A DNA stretch of 64,000 nucleotides from an uncultured Candidatus Moduliflexus sp. (GTDB lineage Bacteria > Moduliflexota > Moduliflexia > Moduliflexales > Moduliflexaceae): contig CAZRSF010000017.1 in assembly GCA_964602655.1 (NCBI GenBank), positions 24,116 through 88,115 on the forward strand. The letters run 5' to 3'. Position 1 is the stretch's first letter. Each line of letters starts with the position of its first letter. The position numbers and the translations under genes were made by a program. The notes under the pieces are model-generated. The model saw only the letters and a list, made by a program, of their open reading frames with translations, ran no database searches and had not been told where the DNA came from. Below, one piece after another: positions 3,892-55,389 of the stretch.

Positions 3892-5085
3892 TTATTCTTT
3901 TTTCTCTGGGATGGCAGGCGTTTTCAGGCTGACCAATTCTGTCAGAAGTTGATTGAAACCGCTATACACATGCAGCGTTTGAATCTGCTCGGTCAGTTTT
4001 TCCAGCGTTTCCAACTCTTTCAGCCGCATGAGCGTCGGGCTGTCTTCCATCAATTTCGCCGTGTTCAGCAGCGAACGGGTCGCAGCGGTTTCTTCGCGGC
4101 GTTTGATCAAATTCGCCTCCGCCAGCTTTTTCGCTTCGATCACTTTATTGACTAATTCCCGCATATCGCCCGGCAGAATCAAATCTTTGACGCCGAGGCT
4201 GCGCAGGTCAATCCCGATTTCCGCCATTTTCGGACGCGCCGTGTTCAAAATCGCCGGATTGATCGCCTCTTTGTCGTCTAATAATTCATCCAGCGTTTTG
4301 CCGCCTACCGCTTCCCGCAAGCCGAATTGTAACTCTTTGTAGAGATGTTCGGTGTAATTCGACACGCTCGTCCGCGCCTTCACCGGATCGGTCACGACGA
4401 ACCAGCAGGTCAGCGTGATACGCAAGCTGATGCGGTCTTTCGTCAGCAATTCCTGGCCGGAAATATCGGTTTGCTGCAAGCGCGTGTCAATCGTTTCGCA
4501 GCGAATATCGCGCCCGAATTTCCAGAAACCATACACGCCCGGCGGCAGCGTCCGCTCCAATTTCCCATTCACGAACAACAGCCCGACAGACGCTTCAGGA
4601 ACAATCTGGCAAAGAAACGAGGTCGGATTTTTTATGCGCATAAACTGCTGCAATTTTTCCGCTGGAATCTCATACGAATCGGAAATATCCATCAACTCTA
4701 ACGAGAGCGTATGAAACGCCTTCCAGTAGAGCTTGCGCGTTGCAGGCAAAACAATTGTAGAAAAATGGCCGTCTTCGAATAACATCCCGACTTGCTGATC
4801 CAACACGTCTGTCGCGAAAAAATGCTGCGCGACAATTTCGGGATATTCCTTACGCAGCATATCGGCGAGAGGGCTGTTAAATTCCAGCGAGTTCACGTCA
4901 TACACATCATACGTAAGGTCGCCAAGCGGATTCGGAAAATAATAGACGCCAGGCAGCAACACCTGAAGCAGCCGTCCCTGCCGAAAAACTAACGCGCGTT
5001 CATGTGCCGCAACGGTGATCTCTTCCCGCATCAGCAGCTTATTGACAAGCGAATACAATGATTTGATCATAATGTGACCTCTCAA
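3892..5085 (-). CDS. SPFH/Band-7 domain protein (slipin/flotillin-like)
   Basis: The translation contains an SPFH core (…ISGQELLTKDRISLRITLTCWFVVTDPVKA…) followed by a coiled-coil C-terminus. The true start may be the internal Met at 5070. Confidence 0.65.
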   Translation of the reverse strand: MRGHIMIKSLYSLVNKLLMREEITVAAHERALVFRQGRLLQVLLPGVYYFPNPLGDLTYDVYDVNSLEFNSPLADMLRKEYPEIVAQHFFATDVLDQQVGMLFEDGHFSTIVLPATRKLYWKAFHTLSLELMDISDSYEIPAEKLQQFMRIKNPTSFLCQIVPEASVGLLFVNGKLERTLPPGVYGFWKFGRDIRCETIDTRLQQTDISGQELLTKDRISLRITLTCWFVVTDPVKARTSVSNYTEHLYKELQFGLREAVGGKTLDELLDDKEAINPAILNTARPKMAEIGIDLRSLGVKDLILPGDMRELVNKVIEAKKLAEANLIKRREETAATRSLLNTAKLMEDSPTLMRLKELETLEKLTEQIQTLHVYSGFNQLLTELVSLKTPAIPEKKE

Positions 5086-5089
5086 TAAG

Positions 5090-5116
5090 CCTCACAGGTT
5101 TTTAAAACCTGTGAGG
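5090..5116. repeat. REP-like palindrome, family 1 (CCTCACAGGTTTT-TAAA-AACCTGTGAGG); other copies at ~10474-10504 and ~43766-43796
   Basis: A perfect inverted repeat is visible in the sequence. Three near-identical copies occur in the window, all intergenic. Confidence 0.8.
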
Positions 5117-5398
5117 TTTGGAAAAGAAGGGGAAAACTGAACGCCTCACAGCATTAAACGCGGTCTCCGGCTTCAGGATGGCAGATGTGCCTGTATTACG
5201 GTGCGAATCGTTCATGCGTCGCCGCTGCCGAAACAACGGCTCAACATGCGCGACGCCGCGCCGTTCAAGGCCATACCGTCATCCGGTATCCGCCGGAGCG
5301 CAGGGCGTCAATTCTGTCCGGCGCAGCCGGTTGACCGAAACTTGCCCGGCCTTCCAGCCCGCCGCTGAGACGTTCAGCATCCCCTGGTAAAGGAATTT

Positions 5399-5470
5399 GG
5401 GACAGGGCTCGAACCTGTGAACTGAGCGGTATTAGCGCTCTGCTCTAACCAACTGAGCTACCCATGGTGG
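5399..5470 (-). tRNA. tRNA-like gene, probably degenerate (pseudo-tRNA)
   Basis: The reverse complement reads TAGCTCAGTTGGTTAGAGC (D-arm), GAGCG-CTAATAC-CGCTC (anticodon arm), ACAGG-TTCGAGC-CCTGT (T-arm), CCCA. Only 4 bp of acceptor stem can pair, and the anticodon loop gives the non-standard AAT anticodon. This is consistent with a decayed Met/Ile-type tRNA. Coordinates are accurate to about ±3. Confidence 0.4.
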
Positions 5471-5494
5471 CGAGCGTTCTAACCATCTGAACTA

Positions 5495-5532
5495 TCCGGT
5501 TGCCCGGAGCGGGACTCGAACCCGCGACCTCT
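5495..5532 (-). pseudogene. tRNA 3'-half fragment: variable hairpin, T-arm (GCGGGTTCGAGTCCCGC) and acceptor 3' strand TCCGGGC-A, with no matching 5' half
   Basis: The reverse complement reads …CGCGAGAGGTCGCGGGTTCGAGTCCCGCTCCGGGCAACC. It is followed directly by another D-arm-like fragment (GGATAGTTCAGATGGTTAGAAC). I found no complementary 5' acceptor strand within 400 nt. Confidence 0.4.
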
Positions 5533-5810
5533 CGCGTGGCGGAAATGTCCGTTTCGGCATCGGCACGCAAAGACTCAATTCGCAGAATCTCCGCGCCAGC
5601 GAGGCATGTAGAACCCCAACTTTTGACGCCTGAACGTTGGTGTGACACTTCCGATTTAAAGAGATAAAAAAGAATGGAAAATCTGTCAAGCGTTTCTTGA
5701 GAGAAACCACAAACGGTCAGGGCAAACGCATCTCAATAGGTGATTTGAGGGCGTGTTCAGCGCACACCCCGATTCATCGGGGGGTGTTGGAACGACCGGA
5801 CGCCAGCAAG

Positions 5811-5830
5811 CACCGCTTCAGCGGGTTTTT
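5811..5830 (+). terminator. Intrinsic-terminator-like hairpin (CCGCTTCAGCGG + GTTTTT) inside a symmetric hairpin-rich element
   Basis: A GC hairpin followed by a T-tract is visible on the plus strand. The reverse-complement hairpin CCGCTGAAGCGG lies 25 nt downstream. Confidence 0.4.
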
Positions 5831-5980
5831 CGTCGGACGGGACACCGCTGAAGCGGTTCGGGGGGAGACAGGAACGTGTCCCACACCCCGATGAATCGGG
5901 GTGTGGGCTCAACCCATGCCTGTCACGCCTTCACATCAAGCATGTAGATGCGTTTGCCCTGCACAAACGGTCATTATTTA

Positions 5981-6061
5981 CCACGAAACACACGAAAATA
6001 TGGAGAACGTCTTCATCGGATGAATAATTTGATTTTTTCGTGTATTTCGTGTGTTTCGTGG
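5981..6061. repeat. Small element bounded by 17-bp inverted repeats CCACGAAACACACGAAA / TTTCGTGTGTTTCGTGG; a related copy lies at ~8054-8118
   Basis: Perfect terminal inverted repeats flank about 47 bp of AT-rich DNA. A second element with CACGAAAGGCACGAA / TTCGTGCCTTTCGTG arms follows the OsmC gene. Confidence 0.6.
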
Positions 6062-6110
6062 TGTGATAAAAAGCTTGACGGATTCCAGAATGATTTCTAA
6101 ACGATGTTGC

Positions 6111-6974: not shown

Positions 6975-7114
6975 GATTCAGTTTAAGGGCGTTCCCTGGC
7001 TGATTCCTGTAAAAATCGGTTGTGCAGGCTGATGGCATGGGGTTCGCATAGTAAATGATAGAAATTTATTGTCCATCATGTCATTTCACACATACCAACA
7101 TCAGGAGAATTATT

Positions 7115-7405: not shown

Positions 7406-7620
7406 ACGCGGCAATAGATTGAAAAAGCCTGAAAGAAGCTCTTCTTTCAGGCTTTTTGCATTTTCCGTACACATATTTCAGGCATGTCCGATTTTTCCAA
7501 GACAATACAATTTTTTCTCTTATAATTAAAGTATGACAGCTTTTCGCGAGAGAACACATATTCGACGAACAGGTTATTCGCCAACACAGCAAACAATATA
7601 GCAACAGGAGATATTAAATC

Positions 7621-8046: not shown

Positions 8047-8215
8047 TCTTTACGCCACGAAAGGCACGAAAAAGAAACCATAAAAATCTTCGTGCCTTTC
8101 GTGTGTTTTGTGGTTTCGAAAGACGAATTTTGTTGCCTTCCCCTTTGACGCATGTTACGCAATCCGCGTTGTTGTCCGAATTCTGATATATCAAACGAAC
8201 TCAAGGAGCGAATAT

Positions 8216-8776: not shown

Positions 8777-8820
8777 ATATTCCAGCCGCGAAATATACGA
8801 AAATATATCGTTATTCAAGC

Positions 8821-8849
8821 CCTGACAGGGTGTAAAACCCTGTCAGGGC
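8821..8849. repeat. REP-like palindrome, family 5 (CCTGACAGGGT-GTAAA-ACCCTGTCAGGG); a variant lies at ~46570-46601
   Basis: A perfect inverted repeat sits between convergent genes. Confidence 0.7.
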
Positions 8850-8856
8850 TTGTGGT

Positions 8857-10320: not shown

Positions 10321-10684
10321 ACGCTTGCTCCTATTTTTCGAAATATTATGCGCAGGGGCGCGGTCTCCGCGCCCAATAAGACCATCCCAGCCATAAATGG
10401 CCGGTCTGAAAGCTGAAGCAGGCTAAAGCCCGCTGACAGGGCGCTTATGAAGATTAATATCGTGTCGCCCAGAGACCTCACAGGTTTTAAAAACCTGTGA
10501 GGTCTGATTAAAAATCAATGCTCGCATCTATAACAGCCCTGGGCGCGGAGACCGCGCCCCTACGCATTAGGTTCATGTTTTGAATTGTGATACCAGATGA
10601 TGAAAATGATGTCTGCTGTCAAGGTTTTCTCGGAAGGAAAGCGCTGTATTAATTGAAACGACTGTTCTATCAATTGAACCACAG

Positions 10685-10725
10685 CGTAGGGGCGTTCAGT
10701 AGGGGCGTTCAATTGAACGCCCCTA
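10685..10725. repeat. REP-like palindrome, family 4 (GTAGGGGCGTTCA-ATTGAACGCCCCTAC), 1.5 tandem copies; other copies at ~11589-11616, ~31998-32024, ~50058-50083 and ~51291-51338
   Basis: The inverted repeat overlaps the CHAD stop codon. A second copy lies between the CHAD start and the ppk1 stop. The copy at 51291-51338 has 24-bp perfect arms and bridges the mreB and DHH stop codons. Confidence 0.75.
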
Positions 10726-11565
10726 CGCTTGCGACGCCGCCGAAAACTCCGCCCAACACGCCTGAAATTCGCGGAAATAGGTTTCTTTTTCATCGCGGAT
10801 TTTCAGGAACAGCATATCGTAGGCGCGTTCATCCGTCAAGGCGGAAGCGTTGGCGTGAGTCTCATGAAAATCGTTGAGATGTTCTTTCGCCACATCGCCG
10901 TCATGCCAGTGGCCGAGCGCCTGATAAATGCCGCGCAACATGCCGTCTAATTCCGCGCTGTATTCGATTCCGGGAAAACAGCGTGTGGCAATCTCAAGCG
11001 TGTAGCGCGTTTCTTTGGCTAAAATGCGGAGCGGATGCAGAGAACTCTCTTTCAGGTCGCGCTGTTCGTATTCATGCAATTCTTGACGTTGAGCATCGAG
11101 GCGGTCGCGCATGTTTCGAGCGGCGTCCTCTTCTCTCAGCGGCGCAAGCGCTCGAATCAGTCGTTCGCCGTTGCGATGAAGCTCCTCTTCGAGATCGAAA
11201 TGCGCGGCAAACGCGGCAAACGATGCGCCAGCGCGGAGTTCTTTCCGTTTTAGCTCGTTATAATATTCGCTCAGAAAGACGCCCATCTCTTTCGCCCAGG
11301 CGCGGGTGAGTTCCTGCTGCACCTGCGCGTCGCGCAAATCGCCGCTGACTTTGAACAGTTTGCGAATCGGGCGCAGATATTTTTTCGACGGAAACGCCTC
11401 TGGCGCAAGGCTTTCGACTAAACGGAAGCACGCGCGGAGTTGTTTGATGCCGACGCGCATGTCATGCAGCGCATCCGGGTCGCGATAAGCCGCGGCGCGT
11501 TCAAAATTCGCCTGAATGCTTGCGGCGAGCGTCTGATAATATTCGAAAAAACATTGTTGAAACAT
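10723..11565 (-). CDS. CHAD-domain protein (polyphosphate-granule associated)
   Basis: The protein is all-helical with conserved His/Arg-rich CHAD motifs (ALHDMRVGIKQLRACFRL…LRDAQV). It sits next to ppk1. Confidence 0.75.
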   Translation of the reverse strand: MFQQCFFEYYQTLAASIQANFERAAAYRDPDALHDMRVGIKQLRACFRLVESLAPEAFPSKKYLRPIRKLFKVSGDLRDAQVQQELTRAWAKEMGVFLSEYYNELKRKELRAGASFAAFAAHFDLEEELHRNGERLIRALAPLREEDAARNMRDRLDAQRQELHEYEQRDLKESSLHPLRILAKETRYTLEIATRCFPGIEYSAELDGMLRGIYQALGHWHDGDVAKEHLNDFHETHANASALTDERAYDMLFLKIRDEKETYFREFQACWAEFSAASQA

Positions 11566-11637
11566 AGTGGAATTGAGGCATATCCAACGTAGGGGCGTTC
11601 AATTGAACGCCCCTACCGTTTTGTCATGATTATAGTA

Positions 11638-13791: not shown

Positions 13792-13800
13792 TCGAATTTT

Positions 13801-14673: not shown

Positions 14674-14678
14674 AGTTG

Positions 14679-17703: not shown

Positions 17704-17710
17704 TCCGCGT

Positions 17711-17737
17711 GTATCCTGGATAGAGTATCCAGGATAC
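17711..17737. promoter_or_regulatory. Perfect palindrome GTATCCTGGATA-GAG-TATCCAGGATAC, operator-like
   Basis: The palindrome has 12-bp perfect arms, sits in an AT-rich intergenic region and abuts a small ORF start. Confidence 0.4.
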
Positions 17738-18099
17738 ACCCCCGGTGTTGGCCTATTTGTGAAATAATTGCTATGTCGTCATTGTGATTCACGATGTTTC
17801 TCCTTTATTAAAATGAATTAGTTCACATGGTCTCTCTCTCGCTCTGCTCCAAAGATGCCTGGGTCAGACATTCTCGGCGATAATACGGTAAGAATGGGGA
17901 ATGCGCGGCTTCTTGTTCTCCCCATTCTTGCCATTTACGAGATGAATAGCCACCTCTCCCCCGTTTCGTCCATCTTCCGTTTTCTCTTTGTGAAATATTT
18001 TTTATTTTATCATTTCTATTGACACAATCGGCGTGACTTTTGAGATTGATTGCAAAAGCAACCTTCTGCACTCTTCAACACATTTCATCGGAGGCGCGT

Positions 18100-19805: not shown

Positions 19806-19844
19806 TTTCAGACCTTTTATGCTATATGTTAACGTATCGTTATA

Positions 19845-22712: not shown

Positions 22713-22761
22713 ACCGCCTCGTTCTTCGATGTTTCGTAAATAATACACGCCACAGAGGAAA

Positions 22762-22794
22762 GCTGTCAGACACGCTCAGAACGTGTCTGACAGC
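22762..22794. repeat. REP-like palindrome, family 3 (GCTGTCAGACACG…CGTGTCTGACAGC); other copies at ~24265-24297 and ~30889-30921
   Basis: Perfect 13-14-bp arms are visible in the sequence. All copies are intergenic. Confidence 0.75.
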
Positions 22795-22873
22795 TTATGT
22801 CAAGGCGTAACTTTCTGCCCTCATGCGTTGCTGTCAAGAAAAAACTTGCCCGCAACCCATTCGCGGCAACCGC

Positions 22874-24244: not shown

Positions 24245-24433
24245 AAAAATATTCGTTTGGTAAAAGTTGTCAGACACCTCGAAGGTGTCTGACAACTTGA
24301 TAGAAATAGAGTGATCATGTTGAGGATTGCATCAAAATCAGGCGGATTGAAGTCAAGGGAAAAAACAGCAGCGAATCATTGCTTGACATTCCCGGCGATT
24401 CTGCCGAACATGTCCCTCAAAGGAGGCGTGGCG

Positions 24434-25438: not shown

Positions 25439-25524
25439 GAGAAACCACAGATGACACAGATTTCACAGATAAAGACCGACAAGAAAAAATCTGTGAAATC
25501 TGTGTCATCTGTGGTTAAAAACTT

Positions 25525-26334: not shown

Positions 26335-26343
26335 GCATCCAAG

Positions 26344-26370
26344 CCTGCCAGGGTTCGGAGCCCTGGCAGG
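26344..26370. repeat. REP-like palindrome, family 2 (CCCTGCCAGGGTT-yyG-AACCCTGGCAGGG); other copies at ~30154-30186, ~33024-33056, ~37532-37564, ~40550-40576 and ~55315-55347
   Basis: Perfect or near-perfect inverted repeats are visible. Six copies occur, including two inside co-directional ABC-transporter operons (tupA|tupB and ATPase|permease). Confidence 0.8.
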
Positions 26371-26384
26371 GGGTTTTCGTGCGG

Positions 26385-30147: not shown

Positions 30148-30197
30148 GAACAGAACCCTGCCAGGGTTTCGAACCCTGGCAGGGTTGGGCATCACCG

Positions 30198-30887: not shown

Positions 30888-30930
30888 AAAGCTGTCAGAC
30901 ACGTCTGAAGTGTCTGACAGCTAAGTCGTT

Positions 30931-31959: not shown

Positions 31960-32058
31960 TGCCAATGATGTTCGAAACGATTATTATGAAGTGATTCGAG
32001 GGTCGTTTAATTGAACGCCCCTACAGGGGCGTCTCTACGGAGAGATAATGGCATTATT

Positions 32059-33012: not shown

Positions 33013-33062
33013 GAGATAAACTTAACCCTGCCAGGGTTTTGAACCCTGGCAGGGTTGATGAA

Positions 33063-36000
33063 TCAACGCCAGTAGGTCTCGCCGATCATCGCGAGATGCT
33101 GCGCCGCGCCCTGATGATTGACATCTGACTGCGTCACGAACTCCAATTCCCGCCGTGCTTGATCAGGCTTGCCAAGCCCTAAATAGCCTAAACCGAGCAG
33201 ATAATGACAGAGAATCCGATTGCGGTGATTCAGGTCTTCGTCAAAAATCAACAAATCCGGCAGCGACACGGCGAAATAATCAATGCTCGGCTCTGCAAAA
33301 AGCTGCTGTTCCGCGTAATCAATCAGCGCGTGAAACCGGCTGCGAGCGCGATCTTCCTGGCCGAGTTTTTCGAACGCCAATCCTTGATAAAAGATTTGTT
33401 CCGGGGGTTGATCGTTGTAAAACATTGCGGCGGACGGGCGTTCCGCGCCGCGATACGCCTGAGCGAACGAGTTTTCAGCGCGAGCCTGATCCCCTGCTTG
33501 CTGAAATGCGCAGCCTTCCAAATAATAGAGATCATTTTCCGATGCGCCATACAGCTTGCCTTCGCCGAGATTCTGCGGATAGGTTTTGGCGCGGTCGAGC
33601 CAGTCAAGCGCCTGCTCGAATTTGAGGGCTTTCAACGCCTGTTTTGCTAAGCCGAGATGACAGGCGACGTATTGCCCCGACACTTTGCCTTCGCCCCCTT
33701 CCCAGGGGTGAAATTTCCGCGCCGCAATCAGCGTTCTGGCGGTGTCGTATTGTTCAAGCTGATTATACAGCGCGGCGCGTTCCAAATAGAGATCGTCGCG
33801 CAATTCCACTAATGGAAGGTGGCCTTCCAAAAACGCCAAACGCTCTTGCGCCGGGCGATTCAGCTTTTTATAGAGTTGATTCAGTTCCATGAACACCCGC
33901 GCATCCTGCGGATTCAGCGCAAACGCCTTTTCCAGGGCGGCTCGCGCTTCTTCGTGATTCATCCGCTTGTTGTAATACGCCAACGCCAAATTCCGGTGCG
34001 TGGTCGGGAAATGCGGGTCAAGCTCACGCGAGGTTTCCCAGCAGCGGATCGCGTCGTCATACTGCCGCCGGTCATACCAGAAATTGCCGAGATAGTAGAA
34101 CGCTTTCGCGTCCGTCGGATTAAATTCTTTCACCGCTTCCAGCGCCGCGACAGCTTCGAGATGATTCGGAAAGCAATAATCCGGCTTCGCATGCGCCGCT
34201 TTTTGATAGCGCTCCGCAGCGGCGGCATCATGCCCGCGCTGCCACTCGAAATAGCCGAGATAGTAATAGATCATTGGATAGGTCGTGTCGGCGTGTTCGT
34301 CGGCAATGACGCGGGAAAGGAGGTCAATCGCCTCATCAAACAGCCCGGCGGCGGCATAATCGAGCGCATATTCGATATGCGTGTGCGGGTCGTTGCGCAT
34401 GGCGCGTGTCAGCGCTGCGACTTCCTGCGCGGCTTCGGCAGTTTTCCCCTGTTCGCGCAAGAGAAGCGCCCGCTCGTTCCAGACGCCGAAATTGAAATGA
34501 TCAAGCTCAAGTGACGCCTGCGTGAACGCCTCCGCCCGGTCGTATTGCCCCAAATGCCGCAAAATCGCGACGTTCAGATGGCGGCCTTTGTGATTCTGCG
34601 TGTTGCGAGAGAGCGAGCGCTCAATCAATTCCAATGCCAACGCGAATTTTTGCCGGGATGCGGCGATTTGCGCGAGCGCGAAATAGCCGCTGTCCTGCCA
34701 CGCGCCGTTCCAGACGCTTTTGAAAAAGGCGTCGAACGCCTCGTCAAGCTTCCCCTGAATTTTCAGGCTGAGGCCGAGATTGTAATACGGCTCGCCGTCA
34801 TAGGGATTCGGATTGCGCTGCGTCAACGTCTTGATGGCGCGGCGGAAATAGGCTTCGCTGTCCTGAAATTGCCCGTGCCGCAAGAGCCAGAGGCCAAGCG
34901 CGTTGTTATTGCGAATATCCCCCGGATCGCGTTTCAGCGCTTCTTGATAGTACGCCGTCGGATCGTAGGTCGCATGGCGGTATTGTTCCAAATGCAGCCC
35001 GGTCAGATACAATTGCTCCGTCGAAGGGAGTTCCTCCGGCGGCAGCGCCGACTTCGCTGAATCTGGAAGCGGCTTTTTTTCAGGCGTTTCAGGTTGATAA
35101 GAGACTAACAACACGCCCTCTTCGGTTGTCACGGAAACGCGCAAATTTTCAGCGTGTTCGCCTGCCGACAATTCGCAGGAGCGGACAAATATTTGCTCCG
35201 GCGAGACATCAACCGTTTTTTCGAAATAAACCTGAGACGCGCTTTGCAGCGTGATGGTCAGGTTGCGATACGCGGCGGTGACATAGATGCTGACAGTCGC
35301 AGACGCACCAGTGATGTCAAGATTGACGAGCGCGTCGGCAGTCGCGTTTTTCACGACGCCAATCGAATGATATGGCAGAAAATATTGATGGAAAATCTTC
35401 TCTTCACACGGCTGAATCCAGCTAAAATCAGGCTGATTGTCGGTATAAACGCCGGTCATCAATTCGATGTACGGGCCGTCCTCGTCTGTCAAATTCCGAT
35501 CCCACGCCTGCCCGAAATCGCCACAGCCCCAAGTCCACTGCTTTTTGCCAGGGGAAATGTGGTGATCCGCGACATGCAGCACGCCTGCCTGCACGCTGTG
35601 ATCATAGCCGCCGACAAAGTCGTATTTCGACTGAATCGCCATGTAGGAGGTCGGCACGGGGATATTTTTATAGCGGGAAATATCCACGCCAGCGGAGTAA
35701 TCCATTTTGTAATACGTGCCGGTGGCGATGGGGAAGCGGGAGACATCGCGCTTGCCGTGATCAAACACGGCGTGAACGTCGGGCGGAAAGACCGATTGAT
35801 AGTCGTCGTTGACCGACACCGCCGGGTTTGCCCACCAGAGGAAATGCTGCGGCATGGTGGTGCGGTTATACAGTTTGCCGGTGATTTTCAGGTAGGCTTT
35901 GTCGGGAAAGAGCGTGAAGCCCGCCATGCCTTTGGTGCGGAACATCCGCTCCACTTCGCTGACCCAGACGGTCGCGCTGCCGTCGTCATGCGTTTCGAAC

Positions 36001-36419
36001 GCGAAATCTACCGGCTCGAACGTGCTGGGGCGATGATGCTGCGGCCAGTTGAATTCGATGCCGCCGGAAATCCAGGGGCCGGTCAGCCCGACTAACGCCG
36101 GTTTCACGACCTGATTATAGTAGATAAAATGCCGCTTCGCGATTTTATCGTATGCCTCATGCACGCGCCCGCCGAGTTCCGGCAGAATCATGAGTTTGAG
36201 ATAGCGGTTTTCCAAAAACAGGGCATGATACGCTTTTTCGACTTTTTCATCCGAGATGTGTTCGATAATCGGATGCGGATAGACCACGCCGCTGCTTCCC
36301 TGATAGACCCGCTTTTCGAAAAACATCGGGTTTTTATCCGGTTCGCCAATAGGATAGGTCGGCAGCGTAATATCTTCTTCCCAGACGCGCACACACGAAA
36401 AATCTTCCATGATCGTCAA
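33063..36419 (-). CDS. Large (1118 aa) protein: N-terminal DUF5107-like domain plus many TPR repeats
   Basis: The C-terminal ~700 aa are TPR-like helical repeats (A..Y.LG…). The N-terminal ~400 aa resemble proteins annotated DUF5107 (glycoside-hydrolase-like), from my recollection of that family. Confidence 0.6.
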   Translation of the reverse strand: MTIMEDFSCVRVWEEDITLPTYPIGEPDKNPMFFEKRVYQGSSGVVYPHPIIEHISDEKVEKAYHALFLENRYLKLMILPELGGRVHEAYDKIAKRHFIYYNQVVKPALVGLTGPWISGGIEFNWPQHHRPSTFEPVDFAFETHDDGSATVWVSEVERMFRTKGMAGFTLFPDKAYLKITGKLYNRTTMPQHFLWWANPAVSVNDDYQSVFPPDVHAVFDHGKRDVSRFPIATGTYYKMDYSAGVDISRYKNIPVPTSYMAIQSKYDFVGGYDHSVQAGVLHVADHHISPGKKQWTWGCGDFGQAWDRNLTDEDGPYIELMTGVYTDNQPDFSWIQPCEEKIFHQYFLPYHSIGVVKNATADALVNLDITGASATVSIYVTAAYRNLTITLQSASQVYFEKTVDVSPEQIFVRSCELSAGEHAENLRVSVTTEEGVLLVSYQPETPEKKPLPDSAKSALPPEELPSTEQLYLTGLHLEQYRHATYDPTAYYQEALKRDPGDIRNNNALGLWLLRHGQFQDSEAYFRRAIKTLTQRNPNPYDGEPYYNLGLSLKIQGKLDEAFDAFFKSVWNGAWQDSGYFALAQIAASRQKFALALELIERSLSRNTQNHKGRHLNVAILRHLGQYDRAEAFTQASLELDHFNFGVWNERALLLREQGKTAEAAQEVAALTRAMRNDPHTHIEYALDYAAAGLFDEAIDLLSRVIADEHADTTYPMIYYYLGYFEWQRGHDAAAAERYQKAAHAKPDYCFPNHLEAVAALEAVKEFNPTDAKAFYYLGNFWYDRRQYDDAIRCWETSRELDPHFPTTHRNLALAYYNKRMNHEEARAALEKAFALNPQDARVFMELNQLYKKLNRPAQERLAFLEGHLPLVELRDDLYLERAALYNQLEQYDTARTLIAARKFHPWEGGEGKVSGQYVACHLGLAKQALKALKFEQALDWLDRAKTYPQNLGEGKLYGASENDLYYLEGCAFQQAGDQARAENSFAQAYRGAERPSAAMFYNDQPPEQIFYQGLAFEKLGQEDRARSRFHALIDYAEQQLFAEPSIDYFAVSLPDLLIFDEDLNHRNRILCHYLLGLGYLGLGKPDQARRELEFVTQSDVNHQGAAQHLAMIGETYWR

Positions 36420-36531
36420 ACAAACCCCACCCCCGGCCCCGGCCCATCGGGGAGGGGAGAACGTTTCCCCTCTCCTTCGGAGATGGGCAAGGGGTGAGGT
36501 GAAAAGAGAGGTAATGAGGAGTGAATGATGA

Positions 36532-37497: not shown

Positions 37498-37568
37498 ACC
37501 CTTTGTCTCCTCATTATCTCGTTTTTATCCAAACCCTGCCAGGGTTTCGAACCCTGGCAGGGTTAAAT

Positions 37569-39059: not shown

Positions 39060-39242
39060 AGAATTGTGATCTCGGAAGAGACGCCCCGACGGGGCGTCTA
39101 TTGTTGAAAAGTTTCCAGCGGTTAACACCGCCGTCTTTATTCCGTAGCCGCTTCGCGGCAGGCCGTTCGCCCTGAAAGGGCGGCGTAATATAGACAGCGG
39201 TTTCAACCGCTGGAAATTTAAGCGGGCTTCACCAGTCGGGTC

Positions 39243-40376: not shown

Positions 40377-40481
40377 CAAGACGACCCACCATATAAAAAT
40401 TTATAACTATCAATTTTATAATATATTACATGATACACACGATTTCTGGCTTGACATTTTTATAGACAAATCGAACAGACT

Positions 40482-40527
40482 ATGTGTCATAGTGACACAT
40501 GCAATAGGGGACATGTGTCACTATGAC
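40482..40527. promoter_or_regulatory. Two TGTGTCA-N3-TGACACA-type palindromes, candidate enhancer (UAS) sites
   Basis: ATGTGTCATAGTGACACAT and ACATGTGTCACTATGAC are spaced about 30 bp apart, between the sigma-54 promoter and the divergent regulator gene. Confidence 0.4.
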
Positions 40528-40590
40528 CCAAACTTATAAGGAACGCAATCCTGCCAGGGGTTCAAACCCTGGCAGGGTTTTTCCAGAAAT

Positions 40591-43756: not shown

Positions 43757-43808
43757 CGGGATACACACCTCACAGGTTTTAAAAACCTGTGAGGTGTTTT
43801 CGTATTGT

Positions 43809-44558
43809 ATGACATTCATTTCTCACTGGCTTGGGCAGGTCGAATATCAGGCGGCGCTGGCGCAGCAGCACGCGCTGGTTGAGGCACATCGAACGAACGC
43901 TGACATGTCTGACACGCTGCTCCTGTTAGAACATCCGCCGACCTTGACGCTTGGCAGGCGTGCGAACCGTGAGCACTTGCTTGTGGATGAAACGACGTTG
44001 CGGCAGCGTGGATTCGTCGTGTTTGAGGCGGAACGCGGCGGGGACATCACGTATCACGGGCCGGGACAGCTTGTGGGGTATCCGATCCTGAATTTGAAGC
44101 GGCTGTACGGCTCGAACGAGCTTGATCTGCACCGATATGTCAGCGAGATTGAAGAGGTGTTGATATTGGCGTTGGCTGAATTCGGTGTGAAAGGGTGGCG
44201 CTACTCAGGCTATACCGGCGTCTGGGTTGATATTGAAGGTGTTTCGGCGAAAATCGCGGCAATTGGAATCAAGGTCAACAGCAAAGGGATCAGCAGTCAC
44301 GGCTTTGCGCTGAACGTCAATACTGAACTCAGCCATTTTGATCTGATTGTGCCGTGCGGGATTCGTGAACATGGCGTGACCAGCCTGTCGCACTTGCTGC
44401 GACAGCCGGTTACGATTCACGATGTCTTGCCCCATGTACTCTCCGCTTTTCGCCGCGTGCTCGGCTATGAAACCGGGATGTTCTTCCCTTCGACAAGCTC
44501 AGGGAACGATTGCCCAACTTTCCCTGAGCTTGTCGAAGGGAAGAACATCCCCCAGTAA
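43809..44558 (+). CDS. lipB: Lipoyl(octanoyl) transferase
   Basis: LipB motifs are present (…LLLLEHPPTLTLGRRA…ITYHGPGQLVGYPIL…AKIAAIGIKV…). The C-terminal 28 aa are encoded by a 31-bp perfect inverted repeat. Confidence 0.85.
   Translation: MTFISHWLGQVEYQAALAQQHALVEAHRTNADMSDTLLLLEHPPTLTLGRRANREHLLVDETTLRQRGFVVFEAERGGDITYHGPGQLVGYPILNLKRLYGSNELDLHRYVSEIEEVLILALAEFGVKGWRYSGYTGVWVDIEGVSAKIAAIGIKVNSKGISSHGFALNVNTELSHFDLIVPCGIREHGVTSLSHLLRQPVTIHDVLPHVLSAFRRVLGYETGMFFPSTSSGNDCPTFPELVEGKNIPQ
44475..44551. repeat. 31-bp perfect inverted repeat (GGGATGTTCTTCCCTTCGACAAGCTCAGGGA / revcomp) with a 15-nt loop, at the lipB 3' end
   Basis: The repeat is visible in the sequence. Both arms lie inside the annotated lipB C-terminal coding region. 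Confidence 0.7.
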
Positions 44559-44565
44559 TTAGACG

Positions 44566-46432: not shown

Positions 46433-46630
46433 AATTAATGATCTCGGAAAAACGTTGCGTACAGCATTATTCACTCATATTGTTCTTCGTATCTCTCGTT
46501 CGTGAAAAGGTCAAGCATTTATTCCAGGAACTTGCGCTGATTATTGATGCGAGCGTTGATTTTTGAGAAGCCCTGTCAGAGTTTAAAACTCTGACAGGGC
46601 TGAAGGCGAGGCGTTGAGGGGAAACGTCAA

Positions 46631-50032: not shown

Positions 50033-50275
50033 AATGACAGATCGATATGCCCGATTGCAGGGGCCTTCGATTGAACGCCCCTGCGAAAAATCCTTTTAAA
50101 AAAAATTGACTGGTAACAAGAGAAAAAATGAGCAGATTGCGTATTTCTCATTGACAAAATAAAAAAAATTTTTTACCATTGAATAAACAATATGAAATGA
50201 CAATTGTCCAACTGACAAATTTTTTTACAGATGGGCAATTTTATCTATAGATGTAATATCCTAGAGGCGTAACGT

Positions 50276-51292
50276 ATGTTAAACATGTTCAGATGGTTTT
50301 CGAAAGACCTCGCCATTGATTTAGGGACGGCAAACACACTCGTGTACTTGCGAGGCAAAGGGATTGTGATGAATGAGCCGTCGGTTGTGGCTACTGATAC
50401 CCGTACCGGAAAGATTGTGGCTATCGGACACGAAGCCAAAGCGATGTTAGGGATGACGCCGGATCAGATTATGGCGGTTCGTCCGATGAAAGATGGTGTG
50501 ATTGCCGATTTCAGAATGACAGAAGCGCTCTTGCGCCACTTCATCAAAAAAGTGTGCAGTAACTTTTTGATTCGTCCGCGCGTTGTGGTGGCTGTGCCGT
50601 TCGGGATTACCGAAGTCGAGAAAAAAGCGGTGAAAGATTCGGTCATTCAGGCCGGAGCGAGCGACGTGACCTTGATTTTAGAACCGATGGCCGCCGCATT
50701 GGGCGCTGGGCTGCCGATTCAAGAGCCGTCGGGCAATATGATCGTTGACATCGGCGGCGGCACGACTGAAGTGGCCGTCATTTCACTTTCAGGAATCGTG
50801 TACAGCCGCTCGATTCGGATTGCAGGCGATGAAATGGATGAAGCGATCATTCAGTACATCAAACGGAAGTATAATTTGCTCATTGGCCTCAAGACCGCAG
50901 AAATTATCAAAAAGACGTTAGGATCGGCGTATCCGCTGGATTCTGAAAAAGTGGTCGAGGTGCGCGGACGCGATCTGGCTGGCGGCGTGCCGAATGTGAT
51001 GAAGATTTCCAGTGAAGAAATTCGCGACGCGCTGGCCGAAACGGTGTTTGCGATCATCGAAGCGATTCGCGTGACGTTGGAACGCACGCCGCCGGAATTG
51101 TCCGCTGACATCATTGATCGCGGCATCATTCTAACGGGCGGGAGTTCCTTGCTGAAAAATTTAGATTTTAAGATTAAAGAAGAAACCGGCCTGCCGGTTG
51201 CGCTTGCAGACGATCCACTGACGACAGTTGCCATCGGAACCGGCAAAGCGATGATGGATCCGGAATTGCTGAAAAAACTCGCGATCTCATAA
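50276..51292 (+). CDS. mreB: Rod-shape-determining actin homologue MreB
   Basis: The actin-fold motifs are present ([10 protein letters not shown]…, …[15 protein letters not shown]…). Confidence 0.9.
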
Positions 51293-51336
51293 ACAGAATC
51301 GTCGGGGCGTTCAATTGAACGCCCCGACGATTCTGT

Positions 51337-52488
51337 TTATTCCGACGAAGAATTCGGCGCGGCGACGCCGATTTTATTGAAGATTTTTTGTTTGACTTGC
51401 AAATCGAACATTTTCCATTTTAAATCCTCGTAGTCATTGCCATAAGTTCCGGCCAAAAAACCGACCGGAATGGCAAATCCACCGGCTTCCTGTTTCCCTC
51501 CGCCGAAATATTCGCCATTCTCGCTCTTGCCGAAGGCTTCTTTGATGAACGCATCCGCGTCAATCGTCAGTTTTGACGTGCGGAACGACCCGCTGAGCAG
51601 TTCTTCTTGATTATCGTTGACGACGATGCCATAGACAATGACGGTATGCACATTTTCTTCCGTCAGCAGAAAATCCGCCGCCTGCGCAATCGCGTCGCGC
51701 TCTTCCTGACGAAGATAGCCGATGCCGGAAATACTGTAATTGTCTTTGATCACGCGATTCGCCAAGGCTTTTTCAATGACGTCCATCACTTTTTTCGACC
51801 GCGCCTGCATCACGATTTCGCTCAGCAGATTCGGATTATAGTAATTGCTCAAATAGGCCGCCGCCAGCAGATCGTGCTCGTTCGCCCGGATAAAATCGTT
51901 CGTATCGCTGCGAATGCCATGTATTAAGGCGGTTGCGCATTTGACATGGAACGAGTCGGTCTTATCCAATTCGATCAGTCCTTGCTGCAAGTAGCTGGTG
52001 TAAATCGTCGCCGTCGCGCCGATTTTGCGAATATCATGAAATTCCGGCGACAGGCCGCCAGAACGTTCGTGGTGATCAACAACAATAATCGGCTTGATAT
52101 TGTGCGCTTCAAGTTTTTTGGTCAGCGCGGTGGTTTTCCCCTGGTTATCCACAAACACGCTGCCCTGGTAGCGCGAAAAATCTATGACGTTGTTTTCGGA
52201 ATGACGAATCAACTCGACATTCAATAATTTGACTAACGCAATATTCTGCTGATGGCTGATGCGTCCGGCATAGACGATGTCCACCTCGATGCCGTAATTC
52301 AAACAAATCAGTTTATGCGTCAGCGCGGAGGCAATCGCATCGGGGTCTGGAAAATCCTGAATCGCCACAATATGCGTTTCTCCGCGATGCGCCTCCAAGA
52401 CATCGCGCAGTTTTTCGACTTTCTGGCTGCCGTGAAGCGCCGCAGTCGTCTGTTTGACGTTTTCTTTCACGTCTTCTGTCTCTGACAT
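51337..52488 (-). CDS. DHH/DHHA1-family phosphoesterase (NrnA-like)
   Basis: DHH motifs are present (…VVDHHER…) with a DHHA1 C-terminal domain. The ATG at 52488 is preceded by AGGGG. Confidence 0.75.
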   Translation of the reverse strand: MSETEDVKENVKQTTAALHGSQKVEKLRDVLEAHRGETHIVAIQDFPDPDAIASALTHKLICLNYGIEVDIVYAGRISHQQNIALVKLLNVELIRHSENNVIDFSRYQGSVFVDNQGKTTALTKKLEAHNIKPIIVVDHHERSGGLSPEFHDIRKIGATATIYTSYLQQGLIELDKTDSFHVKCATALIHGIRSDTNDFIRANEHDLLAAAYLSNYYNPNLLSEIVMQARSKKVMDVIEKALANRVIKDNYSISGIGYLRQEERDAIAQAADFLLTEENVHTVIVYGIVVNDNQEELLSGSFRTSKLTIDADAFIKEAFGKSENGEYFGGGKQEAGGFAIPVGFLAGTYGNDYEDLKWKMFDLQVKQKIFNKIGVAAPNSSSE

Positions 52489-52625
52489 ATATTTTCCCCT
52501 GTTTTGACCCGAATACATACATCAAACCGCCTGACATCCGTTCAGAATGCTCTCCGGTTCATGTACAAAAAGCGCCACCCCGATTTCTCAGGGCAGCGCT
52601 CGCGTAATCATTTTCCTCCAAAACG

Positions 52626-55280
52626 TTACGCTGACCAGGACTCCACGACCTGAAACACTTTGTCAAGCGCTTCAGAAAGTTTTTCAGGGGATTTCCCCCC
52701 TGCCTGCGCCATATCCGGGCGTCCTCCTCCGCTGCCTCCGATCAAACCGGCAATCTCTTTGACAATATTGCCTGCATGATATGTCCCGACAAGGTCTTTC
52801 GTGACAACGGAAATCAGCGACACGCGCTCGCCGTCTTCCACTGTCGCCAACACCACGATCCCGGAATGAATCTTGCTTTTCAATACATCCGCGAAATTTC
52901 GCAGCCCTTTCGCGTCAAGATGCTCAACGCGAGCGGCGATGACTTTGATCCCGCGAATCTCTCGCGCCTGTTCGATCAGCGTATCGGTTTGCAGCGTCGC
53001 CAATTTCATTTTCAACCGTTCGACTTCCCGTTCCTGTTCTCTCGATGCGGCCAGCAATTTCTCGATCCGCGCGCTCACTTCTTCCGGCGATGATTTCAGC
53101 AGCGCCGTCGCCCGGCGAAGCTGCTGCTCTTCCTGCTGAATATACGCCAATGCCGTTTCGCCGGTGACGGCTTCGATGCGGCGCACGCCAGCCGCCACGC
53201 TGCTTTCGCCCAGCAGCTTGAACATGCCGATTTCGCCGGTCGCGACCGCATGTGTGCCGCCGCAGAGTTCCATGCTCAAGCCGGGAATCTGCACCACGCG
53301 CACTTTGTCGCCGTATTTATCCTCGAAAAACGCCAACGCGCCCATATCCAACGCTTCATCCAGCCCGACTTCCTTTGTTTCCACCGGTGTATTGGTGCGA
53401 ATACCGTCGTTGACGATGGTTTCGATACGCTGCATCTCGTCCTCGGCAATCGCGGAAAAATGCGCGAAGTCGAAACGGAAACGCTCCGGTGTGACGAATG
53501 AACCGGCCTGTTTTACATGATCGCCTAACACGTCGCGCAGCGCGGCGTGGAGCAAGTGCGTGGTCGTATGATTGCGCCGCGTCCGTTTGCGCCGCGCCTC
53601 ATCTACGCGGATCGTCAGCTTCTGCCCCGCGCGGAGTTCGCCGCGTTCGACGAGCAGATGATGCACGAACAACTGCGGCACGGGTTTCGTCGTATTGGTA
53701 ATCACCGCCGCCGCGCTGCCGTCCGCCGCCGCGATGACGCCCGTATCGCCGATTTGCCCGCCTGATTCGCCGTAGCATGGCGTCGTGTCGAAAATCACTT
53801 CCACGCGATCTCCGGCGACAGCGGAGTTGACAACCTGCTGATCTTTGAGAATGGCGAGAATCGCGGCGTCATGTTCTTCCAAGCGCTGATAACCGGTAAA
53901 ACGAGTGGCAGGAATCGAATTCGAGAGGGTTTTGTAAATTTCGGAGATCGCCACCTCGCCCGAACCTTTCCAGGATTCGCGGGCGCGACTGCGCTGGGCG
54001 TTCATTTCCCGGTCGAACGCCTCCATGTCAATCGTCAAATTGTGGTCTTTGGCGACATCTTGCGCCAAATCGAGCGGAAAACCGAACGTGTCATATAATT
54101 TGAAAATTTCTTTGCCATCCAATGCCGAATTCTGCTGCCGTTCGGTCGCCTCGACCAGCTTGTTCAGCAAATCCAACCCCTGATTCAGCGTATGCCCGAA
54201 GCGGCGCTCTTCGTTCAGCGTCACTTGTACGACATGCTGATAATGGTCGGCGATTTCGCGGTATTCGTCTTTCATGGCGTCAACCACGACCTGAATCCCT
54301 TTATGCAGGAACGGTTCGGTAATGCCGAGCATTTTGCCGTGTCGAGCGGCGCGGCGCATGATGCGGCGCAACACGTAGCCGCGCCCGTCATTGGCGGGCA
54401 GCACGCCGTCGCTGATCAAAAACGTCGTGGAACGCAAATGATCGGCAATGACGCGCATGGACGCGCTATCCTGCGGGTTATCGCCGTATGTCTTGCCAGA
54501 AATTTCTTCCGTGAATCGCAGCATCGGCGCAAACAGGTCGCTTTCGAAATTGCTGTGTTTGCCCTGCATAACGGCAGCCACGCGCTCCAACCCCATGCCG
54601 GTGTCAATGCTCGGTTTCGGCAGCGGCGTCAACGTGCCGGAGGCATCGCGGTCGAATTGCATGAACACGAGGTTCCAAAGTTCGAGATACCGGTCGCAAT
54701 CGCATTTGCCGATGCCGCAATTGTCTCCGCAGCGCATCTCCTCGCCTTGATCGATCAAAATTTCGGAACAGGGGCCGCACGGCCCGGTGTCGCCCATTGA
54801 CCAGAAGTTATCTTTTTTCCCCATGCGAATAATCCGTTCGACTGGTACGCCGATCATGTTTTTCCAGAGGTCGAAGGCTTCGTCGTCGTCCTGATAGACC
54901 GTCGCCCAGAGGCGATCTTTCGGCAGCCCCAGTCTGCCGGTCAGAAATTCCCAGGCGTACTGAATCGCGTCTTTTTTAAAATAATCGCCGAAGGAAAAAT
55001 TGCCCATCATTTCGAAAAACGTATGATGGCGGGCGGTATGCCCGACATTTTCCAGATCGTTATGTTTTCCGCCAGCCCGAACGCAGCGTTGCGCGGTTGT
55101 GGCGCGGGAATAGCCGCGTACATCGTTGCCGAGAAACACATCTTTGAATTGCACCATCCCGGCATTGGTAAATAATAATGTCGGATCATTCTGTGGAACT
55201 AAGGAAGAACTGGGAACGATGGCATGTCCTTTTTCTTCGAAAAACTGTAAAAATTGCTTCCGCAACTCGCGTCCTGTCAT
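52626..55280 (-). CDS. alaS: Alanine--tRNA ligase
   Basis: The protein is 884 aa with the AlaRS catalytic core, the editing-domain HxxxH/CxxxH motifs and a C-terminal DHHA1-like domain. Confidence 0.95.
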   Translation of the reverse strand: MTGRELRKQFLQFFEEKGHAIVPSSSLVPQNDPTLLFTNAGMVQFKDVFLGNDVRGYSRATTAQRCVRAGGKHNDLENVGHTARHHTFFEMMGNFSFGDYFKKDAIQYAWEFLTGRLGLPKDRLWATVYQDDDEAFDLWKNMIGVPVERIIRMGKKDNFWSMGDTGPCGPCSEILIDQGEEMRCGDNCGIGKCDCDRYLELWNLVFMQFDRDASGTLTPLPKPSIDTGMGLERVAAVMQGKHSNFESDLFAPMLRFTEEISGKTYGDNPQDSASMRVIADHLRSTTFLISDGVLPANDGRGYVLRRIMRRAARHGKMLGITEPFLHKGIQVVVDAMKDEYREIADHYQHVVQVTLNEERRFGHTLNQGLDLLNKLVEATERQQNSALDGKEIFKLYDTFGFPLDLAQDVAKDHNLTIDMEAFDREMNAQRSRARESWKGSGEVAISEIYKTLSNSIPATRFTGYQRLEEHDAAILAILKDQQVVNSAVAGDRVEVIFDTTPCYGESGGQIGDTGVIAAADGSAAAVITNTTKPVPQLFVHHLLVERGELRAGQKLTIRVDEARRKRTRRNHTTTHLLHAALRDVLGDHVKQAGSFVTPERFRFDFAHFSAIAEDEMQRIETIVNDGIRTNTPVETKEVGLDEALDMGALAFFEDKYGDKVRVVQIPGLSMELCGGTHAVATGEIGMFKLLGESSVAAGVRRIEAVTGETALAYIQQEEQQLRRATALLKSSPEEVSARIEKLLAASREQEREVERLKMKLATLQTDTLIEQAREIRGIKVIAARVEHLDAKGLRNFADVLKSKIHSGIVVLATVEDGERVSLISVVTKDLVGTYHAGNIVKEIAGLIGGSGGGRPDMAQAGGKSPEKLSEALDKVFQVVESWSA

Positions 55281-55389
55281 AATAATATGACGACGTTATG
55301 CAATAGTATAAACGACCCCTGGCAGGGTGCGAAACCCTGCCAGGGGTGGGGTCTATATTCGTGAATAACGCCGTCGGCATCTCACAAGG

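Follow-up and report, generated by a model that had tools for sequence, protein, structure and literature searches.

Palindromic elements of the window

The DNA analyzed here is a 64,000-nucleotide stretch (64 kb; the window, numbered from its first base) of an uncultured Candidatus Moduliflexus sp. (contig CAZRSF010000017.1, positions 24,116 to 88,115) of the phylum Moduliflexota, or KSB3, a phylum known for wastewater bulking. Its open reading frames (ORFs) include genes for WD40 and pentapeptide proteins, ppk1 and ppk2, tungstate and sugar ATP-binding cassette (ABC) operons, a sigma-54 regulator gene, mreB, and alaS. Short palindromes recur between these genes. An earlier note on this DNA had described five families of them and likened them to repetitive extragenic palindromes (REPs); their structure, placement, and relatives, and the REP-associated tyrosine transposases (RayT, or TnpA_REP) found with the same palindromes elsewhere, are reported here.

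Perfect hairpins (stem of at least 9 bp, loop of at most 12 nt) numbered 27 across the window, compared to 3 to 10 in each of ten dinucleotide-preserving shuffles; the G+C content is 49.9%. The 9-mer CCTGNCAGG was found at 15 sites (0.38 expected), and the arm of family F2, with up to two mismatches allowed, was found at 12 sites (0.07 expected). All five families (F1 to F5) were confirmed at the positions reported for them. The copies listed earlier total 19 rather than more than 20, for a density of approximately one family copy per 3 kb (at least 19 copies in 64 kb), and only with other palindrome types from a wider inverted-repeat search did the number of palindromic elements reach ∼35. 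Family units are 27 to 37 nt long with perfect stems of 10 to 16 bp (maximum, 26 bp). Not all copies are perfect, as had been described: F4 is decayed near 31990 and again near 50045. Loops had been described as AT loops of 3 to 7 nt, but they span 0 to 7 nt, and some (TCG, CGA, and GCGAA) are not AT-rich. The predicted RNA folding energy (ΔG) of typical copies is −19 to −33 kcal/mol, and that of the copy with the 26-bp stem (51289-51340) is approximately −43 kcal/mol.

All five families are present, but they appear from their sequences to form two superfamilies, alongside other palindrome types, rather than five unrelated families. This grouping follows from a core, AAGC(C)(C)TG-N-CAG, that is common to F1, F2, F3, and F5 and from a GTAG head that is common to F4 and an additional family, F6 (GTAGAGACGCCCCG g CGGGGCGTCTCTAC). 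The first superfamily comprises F1, F2, and F5, which contain the CCTGNCAGG core, and probably F3, as perfect hairpins of 13 to 16 bp. Each F2 arm, AACCCTG-S-CAGGGTT, is nearly palindromic itself (7-1-7, self-complementary). The second superfamily has the double-foot form GTAG...CTAC, which in F4 reads GTAGGGGCGTTCAATTGAACGCCCCTAC (GTAGGGGCGTTCAA/TTGAACGCCCCTAC). F6 was found in Ca. Moduliflexus flocculans UASB14 and in a relative represented by locus L035 (database loci are numbered with the prefix L), and F6 relatives lie in the window at 39075-39102 and 32025-32038. A 5′ GT[AG]G foot is present in F4, in F6, and in one arm of a composite pair at 10352-10563.

Placement relative to genes

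Most family copies lie 2 to 40 nt, typically 2 to 16 nt, past a stop codon. When the window and the Moduliflexaceae loci were pooled, the contexts of 68 perfect hairpins were 27 tandem, 17 convergent, 6 divergent, 10 at locus edges, and 8 inside ORF calls, which were crude and in some cases over-extended. Arms were almost never seen singly in the window, and no arm lies in a coding sequence (CDS). Of 15 CCTGNCAGG sites, 14 belong to paired palindromes, and the last is also intergenic.

Sites inside operons, as noted earlier, were verified at the tupA-tupB, tupB-tupC, sugar ABC ATPase-permease, and binding protein-ATPase junctions. In the tungstate ABC operon, an F2 copy (30154-30186; AACCCTGCCAGGGTT tcg AACCCTGGCAGGGTT) follows the tupA stop codon after 6 nt and leaves 11 nt to the tupB ATG, and an F3 copy (30890-30922) starts 2 nt past the tupB stop codon and ends 8 nt before the tupC ATG. 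The palindromes thus nearly fill these spacers, with the next start codon 8 to 12 nt away. Two further F2 copies, both identical to that of tupA-tupB, lie at 33024-33056 (6 nt from the stop codon of the DUF5107 gene and 11 nt from the downstream epimerase ATG) and at 37532-37564 (4 nt from the stop codon of the sugar ABC ATPase gene and 34 nt from the downstream permease ATG). An F6-like element (39075-39102; AGACGCCCCG a CGGGGCGTCT) adjoins a 110-nt composite palindrome in the spacer of the binding-protein and ATPase genes.

Other copies mark the 3′ ends of genes. An F5 copy (8816-8852; CAAGCCCTGACAGGGT gtaaa ACCCTGTCAGGGCTTG) lies between convergent genes with stop codons 39 nt and 4 nt away, an F3 copy (22760-22796; AAGCTGTCAGACACG ctcagaa CGTGTCTGACAGCTT) lies 77 nt past the MatE stop codon, and an F2 variant (26341-26373) separates the convergent SpoU methylase and SLT transglycosylase genes. 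An F1 copy (43763-43799) is 6 to 8 nt past a histidine-kinase stop codon; an F5 variant (46569-46601; AGCCCTGTCAGAGTTT a AAACTCTGACAGGGCT) is 29 nt past that of cstA and is directly preceded by the motif TTATTGATGCGAGCGTTGATTTTT (46540-46568); and an F2 variant with reversed arm order (55313-55349; CCCCTGGCAGGGT gcgaa ACCCTGCCAGGGG) is 40 nt past that of the T2SSE ATPase gene, upstream of alaS. An F4 double-foot element of 1.5 units (10683-10729; GTAGGGGCGTTCA GTAGGGGCGTTCAA TTGAACGCCCCTAC) overlaps the stop codon of the CHAD gene, and one made of GTAGGGGCGTTCAA and TTGAACGCCCCTAC (11586-11619) follows the stop codon of ppk1 by ∼20 nt and precedes the CHAD gene; L035 lacks it at the same junction. 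The F4 variant with the GTCG head and the 26-bp perfect stem (51289-51340; …GTCGGGGCGTTCAA/TTGAACGCCCCGAC…) overlaps both stop codons of the convergent gene pair mreB and DHH. One decayed F4 copy is 3′ of a class II aminoacyl-tRNA synthetase gene (50045-50086; GCAGGGGCCTTCGA/TTGAACGCCCCTGC). The other (31990-32040, with F4 at ∼31990-32024; …TTGAACGCCCCTAC AGGGGCGTCTCTAC) is fused to a half-copy of F6 and separates tupC from the convergent epimerase gene. Unique perfect hairpins belonging to no family also lie at gene ends (783-813 and 17707-17741).

Some copies precede genes. Once start codons were corrected, two lay in genuine divergent promoter regions. One, an F3-like variant (24264-24298; AAGTTGTCAGACACCT cga AGGTGTCTGACAACTT), is between the MatE gene (ATG at 24244, minus strand) and a WYL regulator gene (ATG at ∼24434, plus strand) and is absent from the matching region of locus L038. 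The other, an F2 variant (40547-40579), is between a sugar-binding protein gene (minus strand) and a sigma-54 response regulator gene (plus strand); 11 nt separate its end from the regulator ATG, and a unique hairpin with a 19-bp stem (40481-40532) adjoins it. An F1 copy (5087-5119; AAGCCTCACAGGTTTT t AAAACCTGTGAGGTTT; ΔG of approximately −21 kcal/mol) is 276 nt downstream of a tRNA gene (5395-5466, minus strand) and 17 nt upstream of the Band7 ATG (5070). The composite at 10352-10563 consists of two inverted REPs, each with head and hairpin (GCAGGGGCGCGGTCTCCGCGCCC at 10352-10374, with the head GCAG, and GTAGGGGCGCGGTCTCCGCGCCC at 10541-10563 on the minus strand), which enclose an F1 copy (10473-10505; AGACCTCACAGGTTTT a AAAACCTGTGAGGTCT) and the motif TTATAGATGCGAGCATTGATT. 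Compared with L035, the composite is an insertion in the 5′ untranslated region of a radical-SAM gene. Copies identical to the enclosed F1 were found in a Moduliflexus sp. (L016) and in M. flocculans (L037).

The earlier statement that no copy has a U-tract was correct for most of them, but runs of 4 or 5 T follow four of the ∼20 family copies. Sites resembling U-tract terminators were not enriched (34, versus 27.4 ± 5.5 expected, in the first 20 kb), and the canonical Rho-independent terminator was rejected as a description of the families. One ordinary A/T-flanked terminator was found in the window (7422-7457).

Position and stability suggest roles at the RNA level, namely 3′-end protection, partial termination, and differential expression within operons. 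Transcribed hairpins of this stability could block 3′-to-5′ exonucleases or pause RNA polymerase and so would serve as hairpin-only 3′-end signals; within operons, they might raise the upstream cistron over the downstream one, as REPs do in E. coli malEFG. The elements are therefore natural candidates for the study of hairpin-only 3′-end formation and of differential expression within operons.

RayT genes containing matching palindromes

The E. coli RayT sequence, used only as a tblastn probe, matched one locus, and it did so exactly at an F2 site. The matching 206-amino-acid ORF, in a Bacteroidales metagenome-assembled genome (MAG; L008), was missed by Pfam and caught by NCBIfam model NF047646 (REP_Tyr_transpos, REP-associated tyrosine transposase) with an E value of 7.7e-18, below the equivalog cut-off. 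The profile of its family matched PDB entry 4ER8, TnpA_REP. The F2 palindrome lies in frame within this ORF (AAC CCT GCC AGG GTT gcg AAC CCT GGC AGG GTT, translated as NPARVANPGRV), and its start codon is preceded, 58 nt upstream, by a hairpin of the CCTGACAGGTTT type.

Further RayT genes of Bacteroidota showed the same arrangement. Perfect palindromes with 15-bp stems were found at CDS nucleotides 226 to 261 in L039, L040, L043/L044, and L045/L046, which is also the position of the internal F2 of L008. F2 is the internal palindrome of L043/L044 as well, and both L008 and L043 encode NPARV-x-NPGRV. In L040, the internal palindrome is F1-like and an F2 copy lies 90 nt past the RayT stop codon. 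In L045/L046, an F5-type palindrome occurs twice upstream of the RayT gene, once inside it, and once 13 nt downstream, and the 12-nt core CCCTGACAGGGT/ACCCTGTCAGGG of the window F5 at 8816-8852 is identical to these flanking and internal palindromes. The likeness between window and RayT-linked palindromes is therefore identity for F2, identity over the 12-nt core for F5, and close similarity for F1.

The L008 RayT family has 5,278 database relatives, many labeled RayT, and the named ones are from Bacteroidota. Among the best 120 of these, a P-x-R…P-x-R peptide was present in 72, and in 60 of the 72 the variable residues were the complementary pairs A/G or D/V (codons GCC/GGC and GAC/GTC). Other homologs translate the same kind of palindrome in a different frame (NLTGF…NLSGL), and some have no palindrome. 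Because of the complementary codon pairs and the alternative reading frames, the conserved entity is the DNA or RNA hairpin and not the peptide, which the palindromes in the DNA of the RayT genes above confirm.

Three observations on RayT-like genes are added here. At three independent Bacteroidota loci (L008, 5013-7345; L039, 9190-18009; and L043, 628-9931/L044), RayT-like genes are located inside type I CRISPR-Cas operons beside cas6; the order in L043 is cas8b-cas7-cas5-cas3-RayT-cas6b-cas1-cas2-cas4, and its CRISPR repeat is unrelated to the REP palindrome. In a metagenomic RayT fragment (L042, 1093-1287), the in-gene REP region consists of tandem 30-nt half-REP units (…ACCAACCCTGCCAGGGTTTCGAACCCGATT…), which are either real or an assembly effect. 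In Flavobacterium microcysteis (L026, 1681-1881), a lone F2 lies within a weak RayT-like reading (41% identity over 77 amino acids; E value, 2e-4) that may, from its sequence, be a decayed RayT gene.

Turnover of the palindromes among relatives

In a scan of species-representative genomes, the exact F2 palindrome was found 6 times in Ca. Moduliflexus flocculans UASB14, 17 times in a Moduliflexus sp. MAG, and once in Ca. Vecturithrix; families of the window recur in these three. Unexpectedly, the same scan detected exact F2 in isolates or MAGs of Chryseobacterium, Flavobacterium, Bacteroidales, Anaerolineales, and Desulfuromonadaceae. The 33-nt F2 unit, with identical stems and a variable loop, thus occurs in at least four phyla. 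Coding DNA of the Moduliflexaceae genomes that have elements in common is only ∼70 to 90% identical, and the window TupB has 84% identity to the M. flocculans protein and 88 to 90% identity to the proteins of four other relatives.

Orthologous junctions were compared. At tupA-tupB, F2 is present in the window and in L038, F6 is present in L035, and an element of the CATTGCGAGCG type is present in M. flocculans (L037). At tupB-tupC, the window and L038 have F3, L035 has none, and L037 has an F1-like element. In the elements shared by the window and L038, stems were unchanged at 30 of 30 (F2) and 25 of 26 (F3) positions, while two of the three F2 loop positions and five of the seven F3 loop positions differed; flanks were conserved. 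The close relative L033 is 86 to 94% identical over aligned nucleotide stretches, and its intergenic palindromes differ from those of the window: the permease-DUF5107 junction has F4 and a hairpin with a 24-bp stem in place of the imperfect palindrome of the GGAGAGGGG type in the window, and the DUF5107-epimerase junction has another type of repeat in place of F2. At eight further junctions compared between the window and L035, nearly all had some hairpin in each genome, but of a different type; at T2SSE-alaS, for example, L035 has a different, unique hairpin. In the 20-kb sample of L035, a family element (F6) was present at only one junction. Since the type of hairpin at orthologous junctions differs among relatives, the turnover resembles that of mobile or frequently replaced DNA. 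That a hairpin of some kind is usually kept suggests that a hairpin 3′ of a gene is useful in itself.

As a separate observation, the DUF5107-TPR protein of the window (33063-36419) has, beyond two close relatives, nearest homologs that are ∼60% identical, and the named ones are nearly all from Bacteroidota. These sequence similarities suggest gene exchange with Bacteroidota, the phylum that also shares F2.

Short-read contigs often ended at or inside palindromes. The 3′ end of L001 (Logan) corresponds to a point near the center (∼51318) of the 51289-51340 element, the 5′ end of L036 is similarly placed, and several contigs of 800 to 2,000 nt with tupB homologs end likewise. REPs appear to fragment short-read assemblies of these organisms at gene boundaries. 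In practice, the palindromes would explain such assembly breaks and could be used as lineage or strain markers.

Origin of the palindromes

We consider it probable that the elements are REPs, that is, short nonautonomous palindromes of the kind mobilized in trans by a RayT/TnpA_REP HUH-tyrosine single-stranded DNA transposase, and that they fit the published TnpA_REP subclass 2.4 (Bertels group 4) type. The earlier description as REP-like is supported by the RayT-linked palindromes of Bacteroidota, by the double-foot form of F4 and F6, and by the different palindromes at the same junctions of relatives. A RayT encoded elsewhere in the genome, or formerly present, would have spread the elements by cleavage and rejoining of hairpin-forming single-stranded DNA, and copies would persist chiefly just past stop codons, where they do the least harm.

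Several results weigh against this conclusion. A RayT or IS200-like transposase, for which the earlier note proposed a search elsewhere in the genome, was found in Bacteroidota, where RayT genes have matching palindromes, but not in the DNA of the host lineage examined. No transposase was found among approximately 50 window ORFs with Pfam, which had also missed the L008 RayT, and neither the window nor ∼250 kb of Moduliflexaceae DNA (within at least 332 kb of sequence examined) yielded a RayT. In tblastn searches of the Moduliflexaceae loci with 121 RayT queries, no gene or convincing remnant was detected, and the matches were to the translated palindrome alone. When metagenomes were scanned for F2 with the RayT motif TTYAAYNNNTAY after it, the AT-rich fragment L042 was the single match; the scan is uninformative on absence because it missed a known JGI example, L043. 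For F3, no RayT partner was found. F1, F2, F3, and F5 lack the GT[AG]G head by which classical REPs are defined, and in F4 the GTAG head drifts to GTCG and GCAG with pairing kept by compensating changes, a pattern that would point to selection or correction for pairing and not to strict recognition by a transposase. Finally, every genome has a hairpin at nearly all orthologous junctions, so that the function of the hairpin could be primary and the identity of the repeat secondary. Because no RayT was found in the lineage DNA examined, mobilization in Moduliflexaceae is a step that we infer.

The strongest alternative is that the elements are hairpin-only ("I-shaped") terminators or stabilizers of mRNA 3′ ends that are kept by selection and share sequence through recombination or conversion and not through transposition. 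The tight placement past stop codons, the very stable stems, and the lack of enrichment of U-tract terminators are as expected for such signals, as are the unique hairpins at gene ends of the window and the often unique hairpins at almost all orthologous junctions of each relative. Termination would be senseless in the two divergent promoter regions (24264-24298 and 40547-40579), however, and these copies make a pure terminator explanation insufficient; copies 8 to 12 nt before start codons within operons are also poorly placed for it. Nor does it account for the identical 33-mer within and beside RayT genes in other phyla, the family swaps at a single junction between close relatives, or the 1.5-unit tandem copy and the decayed half-copies. 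We therefore regard this explanation as unlikely.

Still less probable, in our estimation, are sites recognized at the DNA level, either uptake sequences like the inverted pairs of the Neisseria DNA uptake sequence (DUS) or sites of a palindrome-binding protein. Exactly conserved arms with free loops, as in DUS pairs, the self-complementary F2 arm, and two copies in promoter regions beside regulator genes would suit such sites. The arms are essentially never single or genic, with all but one of the CCTGNCAGG sites paired, while several unrelated families occur together and copy number is sharply unequal between close relatives, down to F6 alone at one junction in the L035 sample. A DUS or uptake signal sequence was rejected on the same grounds of paired arms, strictly intergenic location, and several families. 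Artefacts of palindromic reads, which the contigs that stop at palindromes (L001 and L036) might bring to mind, have a negligible chance of explaining elements that independent NCBI, JGI, ENA, and Logan assemblies show at unchanged sites between conserved flanks and that are also present in isolate genomes of Flavobacterium and Chryseobacterium.

Other candidates were discarded. Miniature inverted-repeat transposable elements (MITEs; 100 to 400 bp with terminal inverted repeats and a target-site duplication) do not match units of 27 to 37 nt, around which neither conserved flanks nor duplications were seen; the composites at 10352-10563 and at L037 4263-4371 alone come near that form. A T-arm or tRNA-like reading of GGGTTCGAAACCC was dropped because loops vary freely among copies, and attC/integron, CRISPR, and sequencing-adaptor readings were ruled out by sequence form and gene context.

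The REP interpretation can be extended, although we hold the extension only tentatively and think it more doubtful than not. RayT and its in-frame REP might cross phyla as a unit, and a transfer from Bacteroidota could have seeded the burst of REPs in Moduliflexus. In this lineage, in which U-tract terminators are not conspicuous, the hairpins would then have become the main signal at gene 3′ ends, with the family at a given junction repeatedly replaced, and fast-changing loops beside fixed stems might reflect re-insertion or conversion from a master copy within the gene.

Other palindromes and features of the window

Two REPIN-like (REP doublet forming hairpin) inverted doublets are present in the window, at 5755-5913 and 10352-10563. 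Long hairpins built of heptamer repeats (CACAGAT or CACGAAA) were found at 25443-25516, 5980-6062, and 8056-8103, as well as at L038 1633-1703 and L037 20593-20689; one lies 8 nt upstream of the SpoU methylase start in the window, and a related L038 copy lies ∼12 nt upstream. The hairpin at 44475-44551 has a 32-bp perfect stem (33 pairs with one mismatch; ΔG of approximately −63 kcal/mol). It overlaps the last ∼28 codons of an LplA-like ORF, the C terminus of which it may have remodeled, and the stop codon of a convergent phosphoesterase gene is 14 nt away. The permease-DUF5107 junction has an imperfect palindrome of the CCCCTCTCC/GGAGAGGGG…GGGGTGGGG type at 36430-36520. The motif TTATAGATGCGAGCRTTGATT directly adjoins F1 or F5 hairpins (window 10506-10535 and 46540-46568; L037 1669 and 4263/4371; L004 2441); the L037 4263/4371 copies form an inverted pair with a spacing of ∼100 nt, reminiscent of MITE or insertion sequence ends.

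Rfam searches at gathering and permissive thresholds returned only the tRNA, chance matches of microRNA-precursor families to long hairpins, and a subthreshold match to Acido-Lenti-1. The last is to one half (39168-39213, minus strand; 33.5 bits, gathering score 37) of the 110-nt imperfect composite palindrome at 39109-39219 between the sugar-binding-protein and ATPase genes, which hints that the Acido-Lenti-1 "small RNA" motif may itself be a repeat element. ARAGORN called the tRNA at 5395-5466 (minus strand) tRNA-Ile with the anticodon AAT, which is unusual for bacteria. Its Rfam tRNA score is modest (49 bits) and its acceptor stem is apparently imperfect, and it may be a degenerate tRNA.

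Comparison with known systems

The palindromes represent a known kind of element, here encountered for the first time at high density in a host of the Moduliflexus type. The paper describing the KSB3 genomes makes no mention of these repeats, and literature searches on the motif strings and on Moduliflexus palindromes returned nothing relevant. The elements would extend REP/RAYT biology to an uncultivated phylum, and they tie perfect hairpins without GTAG to RayT genes that hold the hairpin within their own CDS.

TnpA_REP subclass 2.4, equivalent to Bertels group 4, is characterized by the HuH motif NH[IFV]H, the Y motif YIxNNP, a variable β3-αC insert, double-foot REPs (5′ GT[AG]G … C[TC]AC 3′), REPs in frame within tnpA_REP, and hosts among Cyanobacteria, Bacteroidetes, and scattered phyla (Quentin et al. 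2018, PMC6006769). Bertels et al. (2017, PMC5581495) reported RAYT group 4 to be common in Cyanobacteria, Chlorobia, and Caldilineae. The double-foot form was seen in F4 and F6, the pair at 10352-10563 (heads GTAG and GCAG, each with a GGG…CCC stem) fits the "canonical long" form, and Bacteroidota RayT genes (L008, L040, L043, and L045) contain an in-frame REP. Bacteroidota RayT also has NHFH and YIHNNP, in agreement with the published motifs, and because of these motifs and the in-frame REP, we infer that this family belongs to subclass 2.4, with FE in place of the published WQ keeping the assignment at that level. The window differs from the published type in its host, which is outside those surveys, in the absence of a RayT from the Moduliflexota DNA examined, in the footless F1, F2, F3, and F5, and in its high density of family copies.

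Like the REPs and bacterial interspersed mosaic elements (BIMEs) of E. coli, which are associated with RayT (YafM, PDB 4ER8), the window elements are extragenic, are located 3′ of genes and between cistrons of ABC operons (malE-malF in E. coli), and, in F4 and F6, have a GTAG head. F4 apparently shares GTAGG…GGCGTTCA with the REP consensus of E. coli. REPs of that species are imperfect, bulged palindromes that usually form BIME clusters, whereas the window elements have perfect stems and short or no loops, are mostly single hairpins, and represent several unrelated families together. The DUS inverted terminator pairs of Neisseria similarly have exact arms and free loops just 3′ of genes, but DUS also occur singly and within genes, with one family per genome and a link to competence, none of which was seen here.

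Multiple REP families per genome, inverted doublets (5755-5913 and 10352-10563), and family-specific bursts that are unequal between close relatives are shared with the REPINs of Pseudomonas fluorescens and the SMAG/GTAG elements of Stenotrophomonas maltophilia. In REPINs, two REPs are ∼70 to 110 nt apart, whereas the window elements are mostly single compact hairpins with arms 1 to 7 nt apart. REPIN-RAYT systems are thought to be vertically inherited, whereas F2 is identical across phyla.

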